Virus record (IMG/VR): IMGVR_UViG_2563366990_000016
Coordinates: 1 to 8,320 of that record
Source of the DNA: a virus
Lineage: Duplodnaviria > Heunggongvirae > Uroviricota > Caudoviricetes
DNA length: 8,320 nt
Direction: 5' to 3' (one strand)
Shown: piece by piece, positions 1 through 8,320 of the stretch
Layout of the letters: every line of letters starts with the position of its first letter
How positions within the stretch are numbered: the first letter of the stretch is position 1
Made by a program: the position numbers and the translations under genes
Notes under the pieces: model-generated
Seen by the model: the letters and a program-made list of their open reading frames with translations, nothing else
What the model was told of the DNA's origin: nothing
Databases searched by the model: none

Positions 1-1305
1 TATCCCAGGGACGGCATTCAGCAATATTTTTATGCCATCGCTGAAATTGATGAAGACGGCAACGTGACTGACCTGCGCCCCAGAGGAACCCCGGAAGAGC
101 GCCGCAGTCTGGACGCCCTGAAAAAACACGAGAAATCACGCAACCACCCGGACGCAACGCTGAAAGAAAAGGGCTTCACACAGTTAAGCAGCGCCACCAC
201 CAGTACATCAGAGACACAGGCAGCCACGCCAAAGGCTATAAAGATCGCCATGGACAACGCCGATGGCCGGCTTGCGAAAAACCGCAATGGTGAGGACATC
301 CCCAACAAAGAGCTGTTCCTGATCAACGTGGGCGCACCACGCGTTTATGCAAAAGACGGGTACGTGGGTGAAGCAGGGCAACGCTGGACAACAGAACAAT
401 TCGTGGAATGGCTGAATGAGCGTGGCGCCTTCAGACCAGGACTCTGGATATTCAAAGCCAATATTTCACTTTCCCGGCACAGCGTGCTCACTGATACGGG
501 CTATGGTGATATCTGCCTTGGAGGCTGCCTTATCGAAGTATCAGGCGACATCAACGGGGGGATCATCAGGATCACAACAGGTCTCGAAAGCCCAAACCCT
601 GCCGACATGTACCTCCGCACACAGTTCACCGGGGTTGTTTTAAATAAAGGGAAAAGCACCATCTGGTACCGCACTTACACGGACAAAAACAAACCCACAC
701 CACAGGACATCGGCGCACTGCCTGCAAGTGAGTTGTTACCCGCAGGCGTTCCCCTGCCGTGGCCGTCAGACACCCCGCCTGCCGGTTACGCCATCATGGT
801 GGGGCAGACATTCGATAAAGCACGATATCCCCTGCTGGCAAAAGCCTATCCGGATGGTCGTATCCCGGATATGCGTGGCTGGACAATCAAGGGAAAACCT
901 GCCAGCGGTCGTGCGGTATTGTCACAGGAACAGGACGGCATCAAATCCCACACCCACGGGGGGAGTGTCTCAAATACTGACCTTGGCACGAAAACGACCT
1001 CATCATTTGACTACGGAACCAAAACAACCTCTACAAACGGACAACATGAACACAGCGTCCCCCTGAGAAGACAAGATGGCGGAGGCATAAACTTTGACTG
1101 GCTGGATGGTTCATCGTCCGGTTCTCATATTGGTAATGGATACGTTCCTGCCGCAGGTGACCACCAACATACCGTACCCATTGGCGCACACACCCACACG
1201 CTCGCACTGGGTTCACATGGTCACGGCCTGACCATTAACCCCACCGGTAATGCCGAAAACACCGTTAAAAATATTGCATTTAACTACATCGTGAGGCTTG
1301 CATAA
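1..1305 (+). CDS. Phage side tail fibre protein, C-terminal ~435 aa; 5' end lies upstream of the window
   Basis: Frame 1 is open from nt 1 (no stop before the annotated GTG at 64). Translation carries the conserved tail-fibre motif block [52 protein letters not shown] (nt ~745-895), then five His-x-His motifs (HTH, HEH, HQH, HTHTL, HGH; nt ~950-1230) and a C-terminus [11 protein letters not shown], as recalled for P2 gpH / Mu S / lambda Stf-type fibres. Stop TAA at 1303-1305 overlaps the next start. Confidence 0.85.
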
Positions 1306-1901
1306 TGACCTTTAAAATGAGCGAACACCCACAGACAATTAAAATCTACAACCTGTCAGCCGGAACAAATGAATTTATCGGCGAAGGCGATGCCTGGATC
1401 CCTCCGCATACCGGACTGCCTGCGCACTCAACGGACATTGCCCCGCCTGACATTCCTGAAGGACACGTGGCTATCTTTGATGAGGATGAAAACACCTGGC
1501 AGCTCATGGAAGATCACCGGGGTAAAACCGTCTGGCGTCTGGAGTCGGGAAGCGCCTTACTGATTACTGAGCCGGGCCCGTTACCGGAAAACGTGACCAT
1601 AATAAAACCGGACGGGGAGTTCTGCCGCTGGGACGGGTCATCATGGGCTAAGGATGAAGCGGCAGAACAGGCTTACCGGGTGAGCGAGGCGGAGAATAAA
1701 AAACGGGAATTAATACAGGAAGCAACAAATACAATAAACATCCTTCAGGATGCCGTGGATTTAAATATGGCGACCGACGATGAAAGCGCCCTGCTTCCCC
1801 TGTGGAAAAAATACCGGGTATTACTGAGCCGGACAGACACGGGCAACGCGCCGGATATTGTCTGGCCTGAATCCCCTTCGCCGGATCATCACGCAGGCTG
1901 A
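1305..1901 (+). CDS. tfa: Phage tail fibre assembly protein (Tfa / gpG-like chaperone), 198 aa
   Basis: N-terminus [51 protein letters not shown] and the later [26 protein letters not shown] closely resemble Tfa proteins of E. coli prophages as I recall them. ATG overlaps the fibre stop by 1 nt (taATGa), the usual fibre/chaperone coupling. Confidence 0.85.
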
Positions 1902-1912
1902 CCGGAGGCACC

Positions 1913-2638
1913 ATGACGTGGACAAGAAAAACAATCAGCGTCAGCGCTGACATGCCCCCGCTGAGCTGTTCCGTCATCCCCGTCACACCGTGGACTTACG
2001 GGCTGGGACGATATGAAGAATCGGGGGTATATTTAAGCCCTCCGAACGCCATAAACTGGCTGGCCGGGAAAATGGCCGGAAGCCGTGCATCCGGCGACGT
2101 GACCATTATCATGATTGCCGAAAACACCCACGATCTTTTTATACAGTCAATGGCGGCACTGACCGCCGTTCTGCCCGTGCCGGTATTCACGCAGGCACAG
2201 CGCATGGCACAGGCTGCCGCCAGTCTGAGCACTGACAAAATGCAAATCCCGATCACCACCGACACCCTGCCCGCACCTGTGCATCTTTCCGTTGCCACAA
2301 TGCGCAGCGCAGTCAGTGCCGCCCGTGCAGCACAGGCCAGGCAGCTGGCAGCACAACGCCCGGATGCCGCAGGGCTTCGCCGCCAGATAAGCCGCTTTAT
2401 CAGCAGACGGGCTGGCGCACTTGCCGGACTGGAAGAGGGGATCAGAACACTGGCAGAACAGAAGGCGCAGGCCTGGGTATTTCAGTACCGGGGGTATCAC
2501 CGCGCCGCAGCGGCGGCCATGGTGAAGGATATCCCGGCACCGACCGCCGTACATACCGTTGCCGCACTCCTGGCGGCAGACTCATTAACTGAACTGGGGA
2601 AAATGATCCATGAGCCAGACCGCACTGCTCGCCCTTGA
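1913..2638 (+). CDS. Hypothetical protein (241 aa, Ala-rich), co-transcribed with the tail fibre genes; function unknown
   Basis: ATG at 1913 preceded by GGAGG (1904-1908) and only 11 nt after the tfa stop. Same strand as flanking genes. The antisense ORFs across this span are Cys/Arg-rich and look spurious. No motif I can assign. Confidence 0.5.
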   Translation: MTWTRKTISVSADMPPLSCSVIPVTPWTYGLGRYEESGVYLSPPNAINWLAGKMAGSRASGDVTIIMIAENTHDLFIQSMAALTAVLPVPVFTQAQRMAQAAASLSTDKMQIPITTDTLPAPVHLSVATMRSAVSAARAAQARQLAAQRPDAAGLRRQISRFISRRAGALAGLEEGIRTLAEQKAQAWVFQYRGYHRAAAAAMVKDIPAPTAVHTVAALLAADSLTELGKMIHEPDRTARP

Positions 2639-3152
2639 TGGTGAGGGTATTTTCATGCAGAACATGGTGATTTCGCCCTCGATGCAGTTCCAGGAAAAGG
2701 ACCAGTCCGGCCAGACATCGAGCACCGCGAACGCCGAGCAGGGCATCAAGGCCAAAGAGCTTCGCGTAACCGGGATGATCACCTTTGACAATGAGCGGGC
2801 CCTTCAGCGCATTTTCCAGCTGGCCTCTGCCACCACCGGGGACGGTGCCCTGAAAGTTTACCGTATCGCAAACGCCACCGCTGCCGCCATTAACTTTCGT
2901 GAAGGGACATTTTCCGGGCAGATAGACGCACAGCAGCAGACCGACCGCCTCGCCTGGCAGGTCAGCTTCACATTACGCGAAAGACGAAGCGTACCGGAAA
3001 AACGCCAGGCACGCGCCACCCCCGCCAGCAGCCGTAAACAGACGCCGCAGACGCCCGGCGCAAAAGGCGGGACCGTGGCCGACGAAACACCGGAGAAAAT
3101 GACCTGGTTCGAAGAAAAGGTCCTCAAACCCGTCAATGATGCGCTGGAGTAA
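2610..3152 (+). CDS. Hypothetical protein (180 aa): ~120-aa N-terminal domain plus a charged, Pro/Gln/Lys/Arg-rich C-terminal tail; function unknown
   Basis: ATG at 2610 lies inside the 3' end of the previous ORF (29-nt overlap, different frame) with a purine-rich stretch GGGGAAAA upstream. Stop TAA at 3150-3152 is 2 nt before the next ATG, consistent with translational coupling. Confidence 0.5.
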   Translation: MSQTALLALDGEGIFMQNMVISPSMQFQEKDQSGQTSSTANAEQGIKAKELRVTGMITFDNERALQRIFQLASATTGDGALKVYRIANATAAAINFREGTFSGQIDAQQQTDRLAWQVSFTLRERRSVPEKRQARATPASSRKQTPQTPGAKGGTVADETPEKMTWFEEKVLKPVNDALE

Positions 3153-3154
3153 CC

Positions 3155-4828
3155 ATGAACCCCACTAAACGTCTGTTACTGGGTAACGACACCATTCAGC
3201 TGGTCAGTTGTTCCGTCATGCTTGAGCTGAACGCGTGCGGACGCGGATTTATCACAGCCAGAACAGAGCAGAACTACACCGGGCGCCCCGTTCGTCTCGA
3301 TATCGGATACGGAAACGACCTGGTGCGCTGGTTTACCGGATACGTTGAACGCAGCCAGCCCGCTGAAAACGGCTCGGTGCGGCTTCTGATTCGTGAAATG
3401 GCGGGGATCCTTGATCACCCCTTCCCCTGTTCATTTCAGCACCCGACAATGCGCACGGTCACACAGTGGCTGAGTGAGACCAGCGGGCTGGAAATCATCC
3501 TGCCGGACAACGCGGCTTACACTGACAGACCCGTTCCGCATTTCACACACAGCGGCACGGGCTACGAACTGCTGGCCAGTCTGGGGCGTATTTTCTCCGT
3601 ACCGGATTACATCTGGCATCCGTTACCGGACGGCGGCATTATGGCCGCTGCTGCCGCGCAGGGGATGTTTTCCGGTCGCCCCGTCACCATCCCGCACGAG
3701 TTCAGCCAGGCATCAACGGGCGGGCACAGTATGACCCTCCCGATGATTCAGACGCTGCGACCGGGTGTGGAGGTGAACGGTCAGCGCCTGACGATGGTCA
3801 TGCTGGAAGATGACAACATGACCATCACGTGGACACCACGCAATAAAGCCACCGGCGCCCCCCTCCAGAAGTCCCCTTTCCGTCGCCAGGCTGAAAAGGC
3901 CTTCCCTGAACTGGCATCAGGGCTTCACCTGCCCAAACTGGCACGTGTTGAGGCACCGACCGAAGCCGTCAGCGCGGGCAATATTGCCGACCCGTTCAGA
4001 CCCCGCTACGCGGTGAATCTCCAGCTGCTTGACGAGAACGGCAACCCGGCAGCAGATACGCCCGTCTATAACGCCGTTCCCCTCCCCGTTCCCATGGCGG
4101 GCAGTGAGTCCGGCATGTTCCAGTTCCCGCCACCCGGAACCCTGGTGGAAGTGGGATTTGTGGAAGGCCGGGCGGATAAGCCCTTCATCCGCCAGATAAT
4201 GGCAGAGGGCCACAATCTGCCCGACGTGAAGCCGGGCGAGCAGTTGCAGCAACAGCGCGACGGCGTATCGCAGCGCGTGACGGTCGCCGGAGACTGGGAG
4301 CGCCAGACAGACCAGCGGATACAGGAGACATCACGCGAGCGCGTGGTGAGCGCAGACGAGGAAAAGCGGAGCCTGACCAGCCGGGAGACCACCATACAGG
4401 CAACCGACACAACCACCGTCCTGGGCGTATCCACGCTTCAGGCTGGCGCGGTCACCCATATCACTGAAGAGAACTACAGCATCAGCACGGGCGGGCACAT
4501 GATGGTGGTTGCCGGTACCTGTGAGCGCGACGTGGAAGGCGACACCCAGGACACCGTGGGCGGCAGCCTTACCGAAAGGATTAAGGGCGTCCGTCACAGT
4601 ATTGCGCTGGCGCAGAAGCTGGTTGGCGATACGGTGAAGCTGGGAAACGAGGGCATTAATGTACTGACCATGCTGACGGACCTTGCCGATGTGGTGGAAG
4701 AGCTGGCAGATATTACGGCATCACATACCCACCCCAAAACGGGCACGTCTCCGCAGGCCGCACAGTTCAGCCAGGTCGCTCAGGAGTGCCGCCAGCTTAA
4801 AAATAAATATTCACCAATAATCGAGTAA
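3155..4828 (+). CDS. Putative phage baseplate central spike / hub-like protein (557 aa) with gp5/gpV/VgrG-type OB-fold and His-x-His C-terminal tip
   Basis: Residues ~305-355 (nt ~4070-4220) read VPLPVPMAGSESGMFQFPPPGTLVEVGFVEGRADKPFIRQIMAEGHN, matching the recalled OB-fold signature of gp5/gpV/VgrG spike proteins (P..G..V.V.F..G..D.P.I....N). The C-terminal part has Gly/Val/Thr-rich segments (VLGVSTLQAGAVTHI, GGHMMVVAG, VGGSLTERIKGV, VGDTVKLGNEG) and ends ITASHTHPKTGTSP. The N-terminal ~280 aa are unassigned. No Walker A or nuclease motif seen. Confidence 0.55.
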   Translation: MNPTKRLLLGNDTIQLVSCSVMLELNACGRGFITARTEQNYTGRPVRLDIGYGNDLVRWFTGYVERSQPAENGSVRLLIREMAGILDHPFPCSFQHPTMRTVTQWLSETSGLEIILPDNAAYTDRPVPHFTHSGTGYELLASLGRIFSVPDYIWHPLPDGGIMAAAAAQGMFSGRPVTIPHEFSQASTGGHSMTLPMIQTLRPGVEVNGQRLTMVMLEDDNMTITWTPRNKATGAPLQKSPFRRQAEKAFPELASGLHLPKLARVEAPTEAVSAGNIADPFRPRYAVNLQLLDENGNPAADTPVYNAVPLPVPMAGSESGMFQFPPPGTLVEVGFVEGRADKPFIRQIMAEGHNLPDVKPGEQLQQQRDGVSQRVTVAGDWERQTDQRIQETSRERVVSADEEKRSLTSRETTIQATDTTTVLGVSTLQAGAVTHITEENYSISTGGHMMVVAGTCERDVEGDTQDTVGGSLTERIKGVRHSIALAQKLVGDTVKLGNEGINVLTMLTDLADVVEELADITASHTHPKTGTSPQAAQFSQVAQECRQLKNKYSPIIE

Positions 4829-4842
4829 TTATTCACTTTAAC

Positions 4843-4867
4843 AGGCCGCGCAATGTGGCCTTTTTTA
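4843..4867 (+). terminator. Weak rho-independent terminator candidate after the tail operon
   Basis: AGGCC-gcgcaatgt-GGCCT short stem followed by TTTTTTATT (4861-4869), 15 nt after the stop at 4828. The stem is only 4-5 bp, so this is marginal. Confidence 0.35.
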
Positions 4868-4949
4868 TTCCCCCGACAATAAAAAATATTCATCACCGGA
4901 CATCACCCGCCACGAAAAAACCGTCCGCAGCAGAAAAAAAGATGGACGA

Positions 4950-5530
4950 AACGCCCCACGTAATCCCCACGTAAAACGTCGCGTAACGCCACGTAACGAA
5001 GAAATAATCCCGCCAGCCCGATTCGATCCCCTGACATCAGAAAACGATTTCTGCGCCCCAAAATCGCCGCAAATGGCCGGAAATTTTCGGGGGCGACGTA
5101 ACGCGTAAAGTGACGTAATCGGCGCTACCCCGCACACGCCTCCGGTATTTGTGTACGATAAATTTTGCAAATCGAAAGGGGTGCAAAACACCCCTCCAGG
5201 GCGCGCCATTACTGAGGTTTTCCCTTCTGAATGGTTTTGCACTTTGTGCAAGGTTTTGCAAAAGTGTGCAAAAACTCCGGCTTTCTGAGGATCCCGAAAA
5301 ATTTTAATGCACTGAATAACAAGAGATTTTTAAAATTACGTCACGATCGAAGATCTGAAAAAGGATCCGGTGACGAAAACGGAAAAATCAGGAAAACCAG
5401 AACTGGCGCGGCCTGGCGGGGAGTGGCAGCAAAAATCACTTTTGCACACTTTTGCACAACTGCTCCGAAAAAGGATGGCGAAGGGGAAGGAAAACAGCCG
5501 GATCATCCGTTGCACGTAACGGACGTAAAA
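4950..5530. repeat. Repeat-dense non-coding region: array of (C/G)ACGTAA heptamers, TTTTGCA(C/A) palindromes and phased A-tracts
   Basis: (C/G)ACGTAA at 4957, 4968, 4980, 4990 (spacing 10-12 bp), 5095, 5102, 5112, 5338 (inverted), 5513, 5522. TTTTGCA / TGCAAAA at 5163, 5182, 5235, 5247, 5254 (perfect palindrome TTTTGCAAAA 5254-5263), 5268, and a tandem CTTTTGCACA x2 at 5439-5458. Hairpin AGGGGTG-caaaa-CACCCCT at 5176-5195. A5-7 tracts roughly every 10-11 bp at 5372-5400. No convincing ORF. Confidence 0.5.
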
Positions 5531-5538
5531 GGTAAATT
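5510..5538 (+). promoter_or_regulatory. Putative sigma70 promoter for hok-like unit 1
   Basis: TTGCAC (5510-5515), 17-nt spacer, TAAATT (5533-5538), placed just 5' of where the duplicated unit begins (~5540). Pattern match only. Confidence 0.4.
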
Positions 5539-5690
5539 ACGCGCGGGTGCCTTTCGGCTGACGGCTGGAAGGAATACCTGAAGGCCGGATGTGAAAAGGC
5601 CCCGAGTCAACTAACGTTAACCCGAGGCCCTGACACTTCCTACCTGACAAGTGGAAGGTTAGCGCCTCCCTGTAAAAGGAGTCAAGCGCT

Positions 5691-5831
5691 ATGCCGCAAA
5701 AAACGATCATAGTGAGCATTTTATGCATAACTATTTTGATGATTGTCTGGATGATACACAAGTCACCGTGTGAGTTCAGGCTTAACATCATGTGGTCACA
5801 ATTTGCGGCGTTCTTGCAGTGTAAACAGTAA
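5691..5831 (+). CDS. hok: Hok/Gef-family type I toxin, HokA/PndA-like small membrane peptide (46 aa), copy 1
   Basis: Not in the ORF track (too short). AAGGAG at 5677-5682 sits 8 nt before ATG 5691. Translation MPQKTIIVSILCITILMIVWMIHKSPCEFRLNIMWSQFAAFLQCKQ has the Hok architecture: N-terminal MPQK, one hydrophobic helix, then K-S-x-C-E and AAFL-x-CK, resembling HokA/PndA as recalled. A ~145-nt leader precedes it. Confidence 0.75.
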   Translation: MPQKTIIVSILCITILMIVWMIHKSPCEFRLNIMWSQFAAFLQCKQ

Positions 5832-5921
5832 GAAACCGCAGCGGGGGTGAAAGCCCCCGCTATCCGGTTGCCGGGTTCGGTCGATATGGCACCCCTTTCT
5901 CCATTGGATTACAGACGTATT

Positions 5922-5947
5922 TGCCCGCAATATGCGGGCGTTTTTTT
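5922..5947 (+). terminator. Rho-independent terminator of hok-like unit 1
   Basis: GCCCGCA-ata-TGCGGGC stem-loop (5923-5939) followed by GTTTTTTT (5940-5947). Confidence 0.65.
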
Positions 5948-5964
5948 ACCGTCCCCCTCAAGCA

Positions 5965-5993
5965 TTGCGCACACAAAGGGAAATCAGTACATT
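5965..5993 (+). promoter_or_regulatory. Putative sigma70 promoter for hok-like unit 2
   Basis: TTGCGC (5965-5970), 17-nt spacer, TACATT (5988-5993), just 5' of the second unit. Confidence 0.4.
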
Positions 5994-6148
5994 ACACGCG
6001 GGTGCCTTTCGGCTGATGGCTGGAAGGATTACCTGAAGGCCGGATGTGGAAAGGCCCCGGAGTCAACTTTAATGTTAACCCGAGGCCCTGACCATCTACC
6101 CTAAGCAAGTGGAAGGTTAGCGCCTCCCTGTAAAAGGAGTCAAGCGCT

Positions 6149-6289
6149 ATGCCGCAAAAAACGATCATCGTGAGCATTTTATGCTTAACCATGTTGTTGA
6201 CTGTCTGGATGATACACCGTTCTCCGTGTGAGTTCAGACTTAACATCATGTGGTCAGAATTTGCGGCGTTCTTGCAGTGTAAACCGTAA
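6149..6289 (+). CDS. hok: Hok/Gef-family type I toxin, HokA/PndA-like (46 aa), copy 2
   Basis: AAGGAG then ATG at 6149. Translation MPQKTIIVSILCLTMLLTVWMIHRSPCEFRLNIMWSEFAAFLQCKP, a handful of substitutions from copy 1. Not in the ORF track. Confidence 0.75.
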   Translation: MPQKTIIVSILCLTMLLTVWMIHRSPCEFRLNIMWSEFAAFLQCKP

Positions 6290-6486
6290 GAAACCGCAGC
6301 GGGGGTGAAAGCCCCCGCTATCCGGTTGCCAAAGGTTCGGTCGAAAGTCGCACCCTCACACAAAAGGCACAAAGAAAAATAAATATCCTCCGGCATAGCC
6401 GGAGGTTTTTCAAATGCGCCTATAAGGCTCTCTTACCAGCCGCGCCCTAACAGGCGCACACGATCTGACATTTGCATCCAACTTCG

Positions 6487-6945
6487 TTACTTACGGCCCG
6501 TAAACGGGCTGCCCGGATAGGGAATCGATAACTGCTCTCCCATTTTATCCTCTTCAAGCTGGTGCTTTATGTAATCCTGTATCTTCGCCGTGTTCTTACC
6601 CACCGTATCGACGTAGTACCCTCTGCACCAGAACTCTCTGTTCCTGTATTTGAATTTCAAATCACCAAACTGCTCGTAAAGCATCAGACTGCTTTTCCCT
6701 TTCAGATATCCCATAAAGCCGGATACACTCATTTTGGGCGGGATCTCCACAAGCATATGGATATGATCTGCACAGCATTCAGCTTCAAGAATCCGTACGC
6801 TTTTCCACTCACACAGCTTTCTCAAAATACTGCCTATTGCTCTACGCTTCTCTCTGTAGAACACTTGTCTTCGGTATTTTGGCGCAAAAACTATGTGATA
6901 TTTACAGTTCCATCGGGTGTGCGCTAAGCTCTTTTCGTTCCCCAT
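6487..6945 (-). CDS. tnpA: IS200 transposase TnpA (Y1 HUH transposase), 152 aa
   Basis: Translation from the internal Met (MGNEKSLAHTRWNCKYHIVFAPKYRRQ...HIHMLVEIPPK...GYYVDTVGKNTAKIQDYIKHQLEEDK) carries the HUH motif (HIH) and the catalytic tyrosine region, and matches IS200 TnpA as I recall it. The annotated ORF start at 6996 is an upstream extension. The ATG codon spans 6943-6945 and is preceded by GGGGG. Confidence 0.9.
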   Translation of the reverse strand: MGNEKSLAHTRWNCKYHIVFAPKYRRQVFYREKRRAIGSILRKLCEWKSVRILEAECCADHIHMLVEIPPKMSVSGFMGYLKGKSSLMLYEQFGDLKFKYRNREFWCRGYYVDTVGKNTAKIQDYIKHQLEEDKMGEQLSIPYPGSPFTGRK

Positions 6946-6950
6946 TGGGA

Positions 6951-7020
6951 CCCCCTTTTGATTTCTTGTTTGACACTTGCAGTTGCCAGACCGCAAGGTG
7001 TTTTAACAAATCAAAAGGGG
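6951..7020 (-). promoter_or_regulatory. IS200 5' leader stem-loop that sequesters the tnpA ribosome-binding site
   Basis: CCCCCTTTTGATTT (6951-6964) is complementary to AAATCAAAAGGGG (7008-7020). The arm next to the start codon contains the GGGGG Shine-Dalgarno on the minus strand. This fits the known translational repression structure of IS200. Confidence 0.5.
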
Positions 7021-7094
7021 TTTTAATAACTGGCTCAAAGCTGAAAGCTTTCCGGAACCCCCAGCCTAGCTGGGGGTTTTCTGTGCACAACAAA

Positions 7095-7123
7095 GCCCGC
7101 AGCGTAAAAACTGCGGGCTTTTT
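7095..7123 (+). terminator. Rho-independent terminator-like hairpin just outside the IS200 left end; possibly the displaced terminator of hok-like unit 2
   Basis: GCCCGCAG-cgtaaaaa-CTGCGGGC followed by TTTTT (7119-7123). The stem sequence GCCCGCA is the same as in the unit-1 terminator at 5923-5939. Confidence 0.5.
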
Positions 7124-7160
7124 CTATATCTCGAAAATGTGGTCATTGCGTGGACAACAA

Positions 7161-7184
7161 TTGATATAAATCCTTTTATATCAA
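7161..7184. promoter_or_regulatory. Perfect 10-bp inverted repeat in the flk upstream region
   Basis: TTGATATAAA-tcct-TTTATATCAA, ~140 bp upstream of the flk ATG in an AT-rich stretch. Function unknown. Confidence 0.3.
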
Positions 7185-7324
7185 AATGTTAAATAATTTT
7201 CATTTTTCATCAACAAGGATTTTCACGTTTGTGTTACCTGTATGAGACGAGAGTTAACCGGACAAGTGTGCCATAATCTCGCGGCCAGGCATACTTGCGA
7301 AGATTTCAGGTATAAGGATACGTA

Positions 7325-8320
7325 ATGATACAACCTATTTCCGGCCCTCCTCCTGGGCAACCACCAGGTCAGGGAGATAACCTGCCGTCTGGCGCGGGCA
7401 ATCAGCCTTTATCCAGTCAGCAACGTACTTCGCTGGAAAGCTTAATGACGAAAGTGACCTCACTGACGCAACAGCAAAGAGCAGAACTGTGGGCGGGTAT
7501 CAGGCACGATATTGGTCTGTCGGGAGATTCACCGCTGCTTTCGCGTCACTTCCCTGCCGCTGAGCACAATCTGGCGCAACGTCTGCTGGCCGCGCAAAAA
7601 AGCCATTCTGCCCGCCAGCTTTTAGCGCAATTAGGGGAGTATTTACGTCTGGGGAATAATCGTCAGGCGGTCACGGATTATATCCGTCATAACTTTGGTC
7701 AGACGCCGCTGAATCAGCTCTCACCGGAGCAATTAAAAACCATTCTAACCCTGTTGCAGGAAGGGAAGATGGTTATTCCGCAACCGCAGCAGCGCGAGGC
7801 GACCGACCGTCCGTTATTACCGGCGGAGCACAATGCGCTCAAACAGCTGGTGACCAAACTTGCGGCGGCAACGGGAGAACCCAGCAAACAGATCTGGCAA
7901 TCGATGCTGGAACTTTCCGGGGTGAAAGATGGCGAGTTAATTCCAGCGAAACTGTTTAACCATCTGGTGACCTGGCTGCAGGCGCGTCAGACGCTAAGCC
8001 AGCAAAATACGCCGACGCTTGAATCACTACAGATGGCGCTGAAACAACCTTTAGATGCCAGTGAACTGGCGGCGTTATCGGCATATATCCAGCAAAAATA
8101 TGGCCTTTCTGCGCAATCATCGCTTTCTTCTGCCCAGGCCGAGGATATTCTTAATCAGCTTTATCAACGGCGGGTTAAAGGGATTGATCCGCGTGATATG
8201 CAACCGCTGCTTAATCCTTTTCCACCGATGATGGACACGTTGCAAAATATGGCAACGCGTCCCGCGCTGTGGATACTGTTAGTCGCGATTATCCTGATGC
8301 TGGTCTGGCTGGTTCGTTAA
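7325..8320 (+). CDS. flk: Flagellar regulator Flk-like protein (331 aa), C-terminally membrane-anchored
   Basis: AAGGA at 7311-7315 precedes ATG 7325; stop TAA is the last codon of the window. Pro/Gln-rich N-terminus MIQPISGPPPGQPPGQ and a single C-terminal hydrophobic helix (ALWILLVAIILMLVWLV) match what I recall of enterobacterial Flk. The identification is from memory and not verified. Confidence 0.65.
   Translation: MIQPISGPPPGQPPGQGDNLPSGAGNQPLSSQQRTSLESLMTKVTSLTQQQRAELWAGIRHDIGLSGDSPLLSRHFPAAEHNLAQRLLAAQKSHSARQLLAQLGEYLRLGNNRQAVTDYIRHNFGQTPLNQLSPEQLKTILTLLQEGKMVIPQPQQREATDRPLLPAEHNALKQLVTKLAAATGEPSKQIWQSMLELSGVKDGELIPAKLFNHLVTWLQARQTLSQQNTPTLESLQMALKQPLDASELAALSAYIQQKYGLSAQSSLSSAQAEDILNQLYQRRVKGIDPRDMQPLLNPFPPMMDTLQNMATRPALWILLVAIILMLVWLVR

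Follow-up and report, generated by a model that had tools for sequence, protein, structure and literature searches.

What are the three genes that follow the tail fibre assembly gene tfa in the window, the 8,320-nucleotide stretch of viral DNA analysed here (positions 1 to 8,320 of IMG/VR record IMGVR_UViG_2563366990_000016), and why are sheath and tube genes absent from the same position? The features that frame this question are as follows.

64 to 1305, + strand: tail fibre gene, C-terminal part (Phage_fiber_2, Collar, PHROG 295)
1305 to 1901, + strand: Tfa, tail fibre assembly chaperone (Caudo_TAP, PHROG 105)
1913 to 2638, + strand: ORF-A, 241 aa, HP1 orf33 orthologue
2610 to 3152, + strand: ORF-B, 180 aa, HP1 orf34 orthologue
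3155 to 4828, + strand: ORF-C, 557 aa, HP1 orf35 orthologue
4843 to 4871, + strand: intrinsic terminator that closes the late tail operon

The fibre ORF displayed Pfam matches to Phage_fiber_2 (E 8e-20) and Collar (E 3e-10) and a match to the tail fibre family PHROG 295 (E 1e-137), and the gene probably extends past the left edge of the window. Tfa matched Caudo_TAP in Pfam (E 1e-37) and PHROG 105 (E 5e-86). An earlier note on this DNA had described operon-like spacing after tfa, and the ORF list agreed with it: a gap of 11 nt (1902-1912), an overlap of 29 nt between ORF-A and ORF-B (2610-2638) and a gap of 2 nt before ORF-C (3153-3154). Shine-Dalgarno sequences were found 5' of ORF-A (GGAGG) and ORF-C (GGAG). 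The trio was also confirmed to end at a terminator. Its hairpin (4843-4861), whose 8-bp stem contains 5 GC pairs, lies 15 nt past the ORF-C stop codon and precedes a run of T (TTTTTTATT). No sigma-70-like promoter was found in 1200-5400. The trio and the fibre genes would be co-transcribed from an upstream late promoter, and the three genes may be translationally coupled.

Judged by sequence conservation, ORF-A, ORF-B and ORF-C are real genes and not chance ORFs, because each has homologues in other phage genera and matches a PHROG family (E 9e-59, 3e-66 and 2e-241, respectively). Homologues were present in 75 phage records for ORF-C, 76 for ORF-B (both by tblastn) and 40 for ORF-A, in the same taxa.

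In the HP1 subgroup of Peduoviridae, the late operon canonically closes with orf33-orf34-orf35, and these are the genes of the trio. ORF-A, ORF-B and ORF-C were 27%, 43% and 38% identical to orf33, orf34 and orf35 of Haemophilus phage HP1 over essentially their full length, 100% in the case of ORF-C, with E values of 6e-20 for ORF-A and 3e-39 for ORF-B and a range down to 2e-123. The order Tfa-33-34-35-terminator was found in HP1, SI7, K139 and vB_YenM_324, and the orthologous genes (HP1 orf33-34-35, K139 orf37-39, SI7 gp22-24 and vB_YenM_324 gp33-35) are arranged identically. In K139, the annotated terminator T39 lies after orf39, at a position matching that of the terminator in the window. 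The differences from these four trios lie in the level of identity (27-74%) and in the horizontally swapped fibre/Tfa genes upstream. In phi3 and ACA2, the same order follows the fibre chaperone, with ORF-C divided into two genes. A megablast search of 1305-4900 against the phage collection gave no near-identical phage DNA, and relatives were reached at the protein level only. For ACA1 and ACA2, HHpred has been reported to find a gpU-like protein and a cell-puncturing device in the tail module, which is of the HP1 type (PMC10612066). The papers on phages XM1 and MMNM do not deal with the HP1-subgroup lineage. Neither the literature searched nor the PDB matches contained virion proteomics, a mutant or a solved structure for an HP1-subgroup baseplate.

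Positions 1-5945 of the window were 98.4% identical to a prophage adjoining serS in E. coli strain Bongo, and the upstream part of the window's own prophage was inferred from this 98%-identical relative. The genes of the Bongo prophage include R, S, a DUF2586 sheath, an HP1_Orf24 tube, a chaperone, the tape measure, DUF2590, J and I. In the region beyond the window, they belong to HP1-type families and are ordered as in HP1, the sheath and tube genes preceding the tape measure. The absence of sheath and tube 3' of tfa is thus explained, since HP1-type order puts both of them upstream of the tape measure. The earlier expectation that they should lie directly downstream of tfa holds for the P2 subgroup, but not for the HP1 subgroup. 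We found no gpV-, gpD-, gpU- or gpX-like gene elsewhere in the Bongo prophage. As no other V-, D- or U-like gene is available, the trio must supply the hub. From the orthology, the conserved gene order, the matching folds and the lack of any further hub or spike gene, we consider it very likely that the trio comprises the last three late-tail-operon genes of an HP1-subgroup prophage of the P2 family (Peduoviridae), and propose that these genes supply the centre of the baseplate, for which P2 has gpU, gpD and gpV, encoded at other places.

The Bongo match continues past the terminator. As part of the 98.4% match to the prophage next to serS, the segment 4860-5945 and the hok/gef gene within it move together with the phage. 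The description of the DNA after the trio as non-phage was therefore wrong for the next ~1.1 kb.

The primary structure and the AlphaFold2 (AF2) model of ORF-C were then compared with known hub and spike proteins. The relevant segments are listed below.

3155 to 3859, + strand: ORF-C hub module, gp27/gpD-like, aa 1-235 (AF2 model, Foldseek)
3872 to 4828, + strand: ORF-C spike, gp5/gpV-like, aa 240-557 (Foldseek, alignment to split spike genes)
4724 to 4732, + strand: H-T-H codons (His524, His526), putative iron-binding residues at the spike tip

On the basis of its model, we propose that ORF-C, a member of PHROG 2258 ('baseplate protein'), is a VgrG-style hub-plus-spike fusion. The pLDDT of aa 1-235 was about 80-90. 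The best Foldseek matches of ORF-C were VgrG (9jg9_G, E 2e-13) and the spikes of extracellular contractile injection systems (eCIS), namely Pvc8, Afp8 and AlgoCIS (E 2e-13 to 7e-11 for the group), and the matches to VgrG, Pvc8 and Afp8 were full-length. The hub part matched Mu gp44 (1wru), the E217 hub (8eon_E), the pyocin R2 hub (6u5h_A), which is a gpD homologue, and the N-terminal halves of VgrG proteins. The gp27-like N-terminal fold was found with a Foldseek probability of 1.00 (VgrG, Pvc8, Afp8, Mu gp44, E217 and pyocin hubs). In phi3 and ACA2, the hub is a separate gene of 232 aa and 234 aa, respectively, and the C-terminal part of ORF-C aligned with the separate spikes of these phages, annotated as 'Gp5 domain-containing' in phi3 and 'cell puncturing device' in ACA2. 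The spike part of ORF-C consists of an OB-fold region (pLDDT 60-70), a stretch that the model does not resolve and that is presumed to be a trimeric beta-helix, and helices, with H-x-H near the C terminus; the pLDDT was below 50 over aa 351-487.

At the sequence level, aa 310-345 of ORF-C matched Phage_base_V weakly (E 0.0025; 18.6 bits against a cut-off of 23.8), and aa 313-362 weakly matched the VgrG family TIGR01646, below the family cut-off (17.9 bits against 121.8); the score for TIGR03361 was 14 against 186. ORF-C falls outside these sequence families, even though its proposed mode of action is that of a VgrG. BLASTP against P2 gpV gave a best E value of 0.033 in an unrelated stretch, and hhalign of the ORF-C family against gpD gave a probability of 0.6%. 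The links of ORF-B and ORF-C to P2 gpU, gpD and gpV thus come from fold, position and necessity, with sequence tests that fail or stay below cut-off.

The translation around the H-x-H motif reads ASHTHPKT. His524 and His526 were invariant in 39 enterobacterial homologues, and likewise in HP1, K139, phi3, ACA2, SI7 and YenM_324. The ORF-C homologue of Smhb1 has been described as a tail spike that bears the same H-T-H motif (PMC8537503). The H-x-H-P of ORF-C resembles the HKHP at the tip of gpV, whose C terminus in P2 is LHTHKHPGD. In ORF-C, H-x-H is followed by about 30 residues, among them a predicted helix, compared with about 12 residues in P2 gpV. The motif probably holds an iron ion.

ORF-B was assigned to PF25759 (HP1_ORF34, baseplate complex protein) with an E value of 4e-54 and 183.4 bits against a cut-off of 27, covering profile positions 3-175 of 180. 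The earlier note could not place the first two proteins in any family, but both have one, ORF-A falling in PHROG 1677. The ORF-B model can be divided into three parts, all encoded on the + strand within 2610 to 3152.

aa 1-127, + strand: tube-fold domain (structure model)
aa 128-161, + strand: disordered basic linker
aa 166-179, + strand: conserved C-terminal helix

The best matches of the model were tube initiators or ripcords, including pyocin PA0626, a gpU homologue. From the model, we propose that ORF-B is a tube initiator or 'ripcord' analogous to P2 gpU. The tube fold and a C-terminal arm are shared with these best structural matches (P2 gpU and PA0626, Pam3 gp17, the Pa193 and E217 ripcords and Mu gp43), and the gene adjoins the hub gene, as U adjoins D in P2. 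ORF-B differs from these proteins in having no sequence-level relationship to them and no LysM domain: there was no Phage_P2_GpU match in Pfam, and the hhalign probability for the ORF-B family and gpU was 0.07%. PDB sequence and profile searches with ORF-A, ORF-B and their family alignments returned only chance matches or coiled-coil noise. In several phage records, ORF-B orthologues bear unexpected labels, for example 'adenine glycosylase' or 'nucleoid DNA-binding protein'.

In the baseplate that we propose, the first ~235 residues of ORF-C would form the hub, presumably as a trimer that initiates the tube, and ORF-B would sit atop the hub in the role of tube initiator or ripcord. The conserved C-terminal helix of ORF-B would extend to a neighbouring baseplate component. 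The remainder of ORF-C, with its OB-fold, presumed beta-helix and H-x-H near the C terminus, would be the spike that pierces the outer membrane upon sheath contraction. This is the same inferred job as that of P2 gpD and gpV and of the corresponding part of pyocin R2, whose hub the ORF-C model matches. On the other hand, ORF-C has no significant sequence similarity to gpD or gpV and fuses both functions in 557 aa, its hub is ~235 aa compared with the 387 aa of gpD, and its gene follows the fibre genes, whereas the P2 hub and spike genes are in the V and F operons. With VgrG of the type VI secretion system and the eCIS spikes, ORF-C shares a fused gp27-like hub, OB-fold and spike. In contrast to these proteins, ORF-C would be a phage virion protein and not part of a secretion system, and the histidine motif takes the place of their PAAR cap; no PAAR gene was seen.

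We considered the possibility that the trio is instead accessory cargo (moron, defence or lysogenic-conversion genes) that the late operon carries at its slot after tfa. P2 does have a cargo slot after tfa (fun/Z), a diversity-generating retroelement (DGR) separates the fibre from the trio in ACA2, and ORF-A has no known function. However, the trio was present, in the same order, in every HP1-subgroup genome inspected (HP1, SI7, K139, phi3, ACA2 and vB_YenM_324), and tblastn placed ORF-C and ORF-B homologues in 75 and 76 phage records. Furthermore, the trio has no promoter of its own, its GC content (0.58-0.64) is close to that of the structural core (0.57-0.63), PADLOC gave no defence-system matches, and Pfam and NCBIfam gave no accessory domains. 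The baseplate folds of the ORF-B and ORF-C models and the lack of another hub or spike gene in the Bongo prophage also count against cargo. Real cargo sits past the terminator, in the form of hok/gef here and HicAB in phi3. The cargo explanation is close to refuted.

An accessory role of the trio in host range or at the tail tip, for instance through fibre-attachment or receptor-binding helpers that co-evolve with this particular fibre/Tfa pair, is also very unlikely. The location of the trio in the same operon directly 3' of tfa would fit, as would the fast evolution of ORF-A, the fastest of the three, and spike tips can play a part in interactions with the host. Nevertheless, in comparisons with HP1 and K139, fibre/Tfa homology is nearly gone, whereas ORF-A, ORF-B and ORF-C are homologous over their whole length. 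The trio shows the same levels of identity as the sheath, J, I and the tape measure, and the compositional break falls between Tfa and ORF-A, with GC contents of 0.48-0.55 in the fibre tip and Tfa; the region downstream of the trio is at 0.48. Seen in these alignments, the fibre cassette is a mosaic, and the trio remains linked to the tail core when fibre/Tfa is swapped. A tie between the trio and this fibre/Tfa pair, which the earlier note had suggested looking for in relatives, is contradicted by HP1 and K139, which keep the trio with unrelated fibre/Tfa genes. Of its reading of the trio as an unusual tail-tip or host-range module or cargo, the tail-tip element survives in substance through the baseplate assignments of ORF-B and ORF-C, while 'unusual', 'host-range' and 'cargo' do not. 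Full-length homology to routine baseplate parts in a standard gene order, the outcome it had set against its own reading, was found as regards the order, ORF-B and ORF-C, but not ORF-A.

Returning to the trio as the supplier of the central baseplate, the weakest step in this explanation is ORF-A. By sequence, ORF-A is placed in PHROG 1677 (E 9e-59) but in no functional family. Its orthologues are HP1 orf33 (27% identical), K139 orf37 and SI7 gp22 (47%), and its relatives number 99 cluster representatives among 1.8 billion proteins. The N-terminal region is conserved, and the Ala-rich stretch after it resembles a coiled coil. Pfam gave no match above threshold, NCBIfam and PADLOC gave none, PDB sequences gave nothing significant, and PDB sequence and profile searches detected no relative of known function or structure. 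Distant relatives displayed no informative domain fusions. Two distant matches were discarded, one being a Tfa read-through fragment and the other, of 1165 aa, appearing spurious. The identities of ORF-A to its relatives (47/27/26%) run parallel to those of the tape measure (48/30/33%). ORF-A is probably a lineage-specific partner, a structural or assembly protein associated with the hub or the tape measure.

A non-virion role of ORF-A, either as a dedicated hub or tape-measure assembly factor or as an unrelated non-structural protein kept by operon history, is a reasonable possibility, though not the one that we favour. Sequence comparison gave no structural relative in solved baseplates, the sequence is helical and Ala-rich, and identity levels that track the tape measure fit a partner or a chaperone alike. 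Against this, the depositors of Yersinia phage vB_YenM_324 label the orthologue 'structural protein', a label given with no stated basis, and the 29-nt overlap with ORF-B suggests stoichiometric co-production. A more specific and rather unlikely version of the partner role is that ORF-A is associated with the baseplate or tape measure, has a fold unseen in solved contractile tails, and replaces the absent LysM-type 'glue' (P2 gpX) alongside a compact ~235-aa hub that is either spike-fused or split.

These results correct the earlier reading of the locus, in that both the lack of sheath and tube genes at this position and the presence of three further genes 3' of tfa reflect ordinary HP1-type gene order; as this order explains the locus, there is no case for pursuing the trio as a cargo or host-range cassette. 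The orthologues of ORF-C, mostly labelled 'hypothetical', can be named as hub-spike proteins, and those of ORF-B as tube initiators. ORF-A is a genuinely uncharacterised protein conserved in the HP1 subgroup. If it does act as a substitute for the gpX-type glue, the HP1 subgroup would have one of the most minimal phage baseplate cores.

Downstream of the tail fibre chaperone gene tfa lie three genes, designated ORF-A, ORF-B and ORF-C (together, the trio), which are arranged as follows.

64-1305: C-terminus of the tail fibre, with Phage_fiber_2 and Collar domains
1305-1901: fibre chaperone (Tfa), with a Caudo_TAP domain
1913-2638, plus strand: ORF-A, 241 aa, PHROG family 1677
2610-3152, plus strand: ORF-B, 180 aa, PHROG family 1398 and Pfam PF25759
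3155-4828, plus strand: ORF-C, 557 aa, PHROG family 2258
4843-4871: hairpin and T run (terminator)

As the earlier note had described, ORF-A follows tfa after 11 nt and overlaps ORF-B by 29 nt, and ORF-C begins after a gap of 2 nt. Shine-Dalgarno-type sequences precede ORF-A (GGAGG) and ORF-C (GGAG), and no sigma-70-like promoter was found across window positions 1200-5400.

All three proteins matched PHROG profiles, ORF-A with an E value of 9e-59, ORF-B with 3e-66 and ORF-C, over its full length, with 2e-241, the last to a family named 'baseplate protein'. ORF-B is also a clear member of PF25759, 'Bacteriophage HP1 ORF34 baseplate complex protein' (E 4e-54). By tblastn, 75 phage records contained ORF-C, among them HP1, HP2, K139, Kappa, phiO18P, F108, ESSI-2, SI7, vB_YenM_324 and phi3, nearly always close to a genome end; ORF-B (76 records) and ORF-A (40) were found in the same taxa at adjoining coordinates. 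Pairwise comparisons with HP1 orf33, orf34 and orf35 confirmed the orthology of the trio. Identities to the SI7, HP1 and K139 counterparts were as follows.

ORF-A: SI7 47%, HP1 (orf33) 27% (E 6e-20), K139 26%
ORF-B: SI7 74%, HP1 (orf34) 43% (E 3e-39), K139 38%
ORF-C: SI7 66%, HP1 (orf35) 38% (full length), K139 36%
Tape measure: SI7 48%, HP1 30%, K139 33%

The maps of HP1, SI7, K139 and vB_YenM_324 all (4/4) run tape measure, DUF2590, J, I, fibre, Tfa and then the trio, and in K139 a terminator is annotated directly 3' of the third trio gene. Homology and synteny make the module a member of the HP1 orf33-35 set. The arrangement is already known, being present in HP1 and K139, with Pfam and PHROG families in existence and in silico roles published. 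In several phage records (NC_070917, NC_047775, NC_027368, NC_030940 and NC_055862), the ORF-B orthologue carries a label such as 'adenine glycosylase', 'nucleoid DNA-binding protein' or 'DNA-binding protein'. These labels are at odds with both the tube-initiator fold and Pfam HP1_ORF34, and look like propagated mis-annotation.

E. coli strain Bongo carries a complete prophage with 98.4% identity to window positions 1-5945. Its genes follow the HP1 order, running from portal, terminase, scaffold and capsid through gpR-like, gpS-like, sheath (DUF2586), tube (HP1_Orf24) and lysis genes to chaperone, tape measure, DUF2590, J, I, fibre, Tfa and the trio. The split of the tail module between HP1 and P2 subgroups across Peduoviridae genera was described in 2023 (PMC10612066). 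The expectation in the earlier note that sheath and tube genes should lie 3' of tfa applies to the P2 subgroup, in which FI and FII come after G, whereas the HP1 subgroup has both genes upstream. Outside the trio, nothing in the Bongo tail module corresponded to P2 gpV (spike), gpD (hub), gpU or gpX. As is established for the T4, P2, pyocin and T6SS baseplates, no contractile tail can do without hub, spike and tube-initiator components, so the trio would have to be structural.

The AlphaFold2 model of ORF-C (mean pLDDT 63) was good for residues 1-235 and 490-557 and poor for 351-487. Its best Foldseek matches were fused hub-spike proteins, namely T6SS VgrG (9jg9_G, E 2e-13), the Streptomyces CIS spike, Pvc8, the AlgoCIS spike and Afp8, followed by the hub-only proteins of phiTE, Mu (gp44), E217 (gp41), P1 and pyocin R2, the last a sequence homologue of P2 gpD. 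Residues 310-362 gave weak sequence signals for the gp5/VgrG OB-fold region. The gene is fused in HP1, K139 and enterobacterial phages, occurs as two fragments in many phages of Vibrio cyclitrophicus (tblastn), and is split into two overlapping genes in Pseudomonas phage phi3 (L005 11983-13637, 16 nt overlap) and Pseudoalteromonas phage ACA2 (L006 11971-13601, 28 nt). In these two phages the hub gene encodes 232-234 aa ('gpD-like' in the ACA2 annotation) and the spike gene 317-323 aa ('Gp5 domain-containing' or 'cell puncturing device'), which places the domain boundary of ORF-C near residue 240. His524 and His526 (SHTHP, nt 4724-4732) were conserved without exception across 39 enterobacterial homologues and the HP1, K139, phi3 and ACA2 proteins; P2 gpV ends in HTHKHP. 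Browning et al. in 2012 reportedly found that the iron ion at the tip of the gpV spike is coordinated by an H-x-H motif. The equivalent point has been made for a homologous spike in the Smhb1 paper (PMC8537503). As a set, the trio would work like P2 gpU, gpD and gpV and like VgrG, but failed the tests of sequence membership in those families. No solved HP1-type baseplate was among the PDB matches.

ORF-A had no Pfam match reaching threshold, nothing in NCBIfam or PADLOC and no relative in PDB sequence searches, and profile searches matched only coiled-coil proteins. An exhaustive search yielded just 99 cluster representatives (230-310 aa), and none of them had a domain fusion that was informative. 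Its identities to SI7, HP1 and K139 parallel those of the tape measure (L001 14980-17166 in the Bongo prophage), unlike those of other baseplate proteins, which may hint at a functional link.

We infer that a late transcript starting upstream would cross the fibre genes, tfa and the trio and stop at the terminator, with translation coupled through the overlapping stops and starts. ORF-C, as a trimer, would make up the axial hub and spike of the tail, and an ORF-B ring would start tube polymerisation, its C-terminal arm touching adjacent baseplate components. ORF-A is probably a partner of the hub or the tape measure, or an aid in their assembly. Sheath contraction would then drive the histidine/metal-capped spike through the outer membrane.

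Beyond the terminator, the window contains the following.

5231-5581: 116-aa ORF, 'hypothetical' in the annotation of the Bongo prophage
5527-6356: two tandem hok/gef-type loci of ~370 bp each (ORFs 5691-5831 and 6149-6289; Pfam HOK_GEF, E 7e-6 and 2e-6)
~6380-7089: IS200 element (tnpA 6487-6996, minus strand, Y1 transposase, Pfam E 5e-38; 5' sRNA, Rfam STnc490, 6955-7078, minus strand)
7089-7123: 35-nt sequence directly upstream of flk

The 116-aa ORF, between the late terminator and the first hok/gef locus, had no Pfam or PADLOC match. A cos site or attP arm could lie within 4870-5500. The two hok/gef loci are ~88% identical to one another, and the Bongo prophage, which adjoins serS, has three copies. 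As 4860-5945, including the first copy, is 98% identical to that prophage, the phage carries at least one of the hok loci as cargo, 3' of its late terminator. The IS200 element, between the hok array and flk, was absent from this position in the aligned E. coli relatives. The 35-nt sequence recurs 3' of hok arrays, with 100% identity in the Bongo prophage at serS (L001 27107-27141) and 94% in strain AR_0085 (L009 2887-2918), where the same flk site is occupied by a true P2-type prophage (sheath, gpD, ogr), with a 75%-identical hok after it. Hok-type loci, or the 35-nt sequence, may thus mark an attachment site common to Peduoviridae.

The earlier note had proposed that the trio was either cargo or an unusual tail-tip or host-range module. 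We compared the fibre, Tfa, trio and tape measure with their SI7, HP1 and K139 counterparts. The trio kept whole-length homology to all three phages, ORF-B and ORF-C at levels like those of sheath, J and I, and its GC content (0.58-0.64) equals that of the structural core (0.57-0.63), so the cargo reading was rejected; the trio shares its ancestry with the tail core. The fibre and Tfa have essentially no homology left beyond SI7, and GC is 0.48-0.55 in the fibre tip and Tfa and 0.48 in the DNA 3' of the terminator. Since the fibre and Tfa are replaced in HP1 and K139 while the trio keeps its homology, the host-range reading was also rejected, and the swapped, horizontally exchanged cassette is the fibre and Tfa. 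The Tfa/ORF-A junction (64-1901 versus 1913-4828) is a break in both composition and phylogeny, the fibre tip and Tfa being without HP1 or K139 homology.

The true accessory slot is 3' of the terminator, occupied by a hok/gef gene in the window, HicAB in phi3 (L005 13680-14294, 3' of the trio) and small ORFs in SI7. In ACA2, a diversity-generating retroelement (antireceptor, avd and reverse transcriptase; L006 7664-10590) lies between the fibre and the trio. The ACA2 retroelement and the phi3 HicAB mark the places where real accessory genes are inserted in this lineage.
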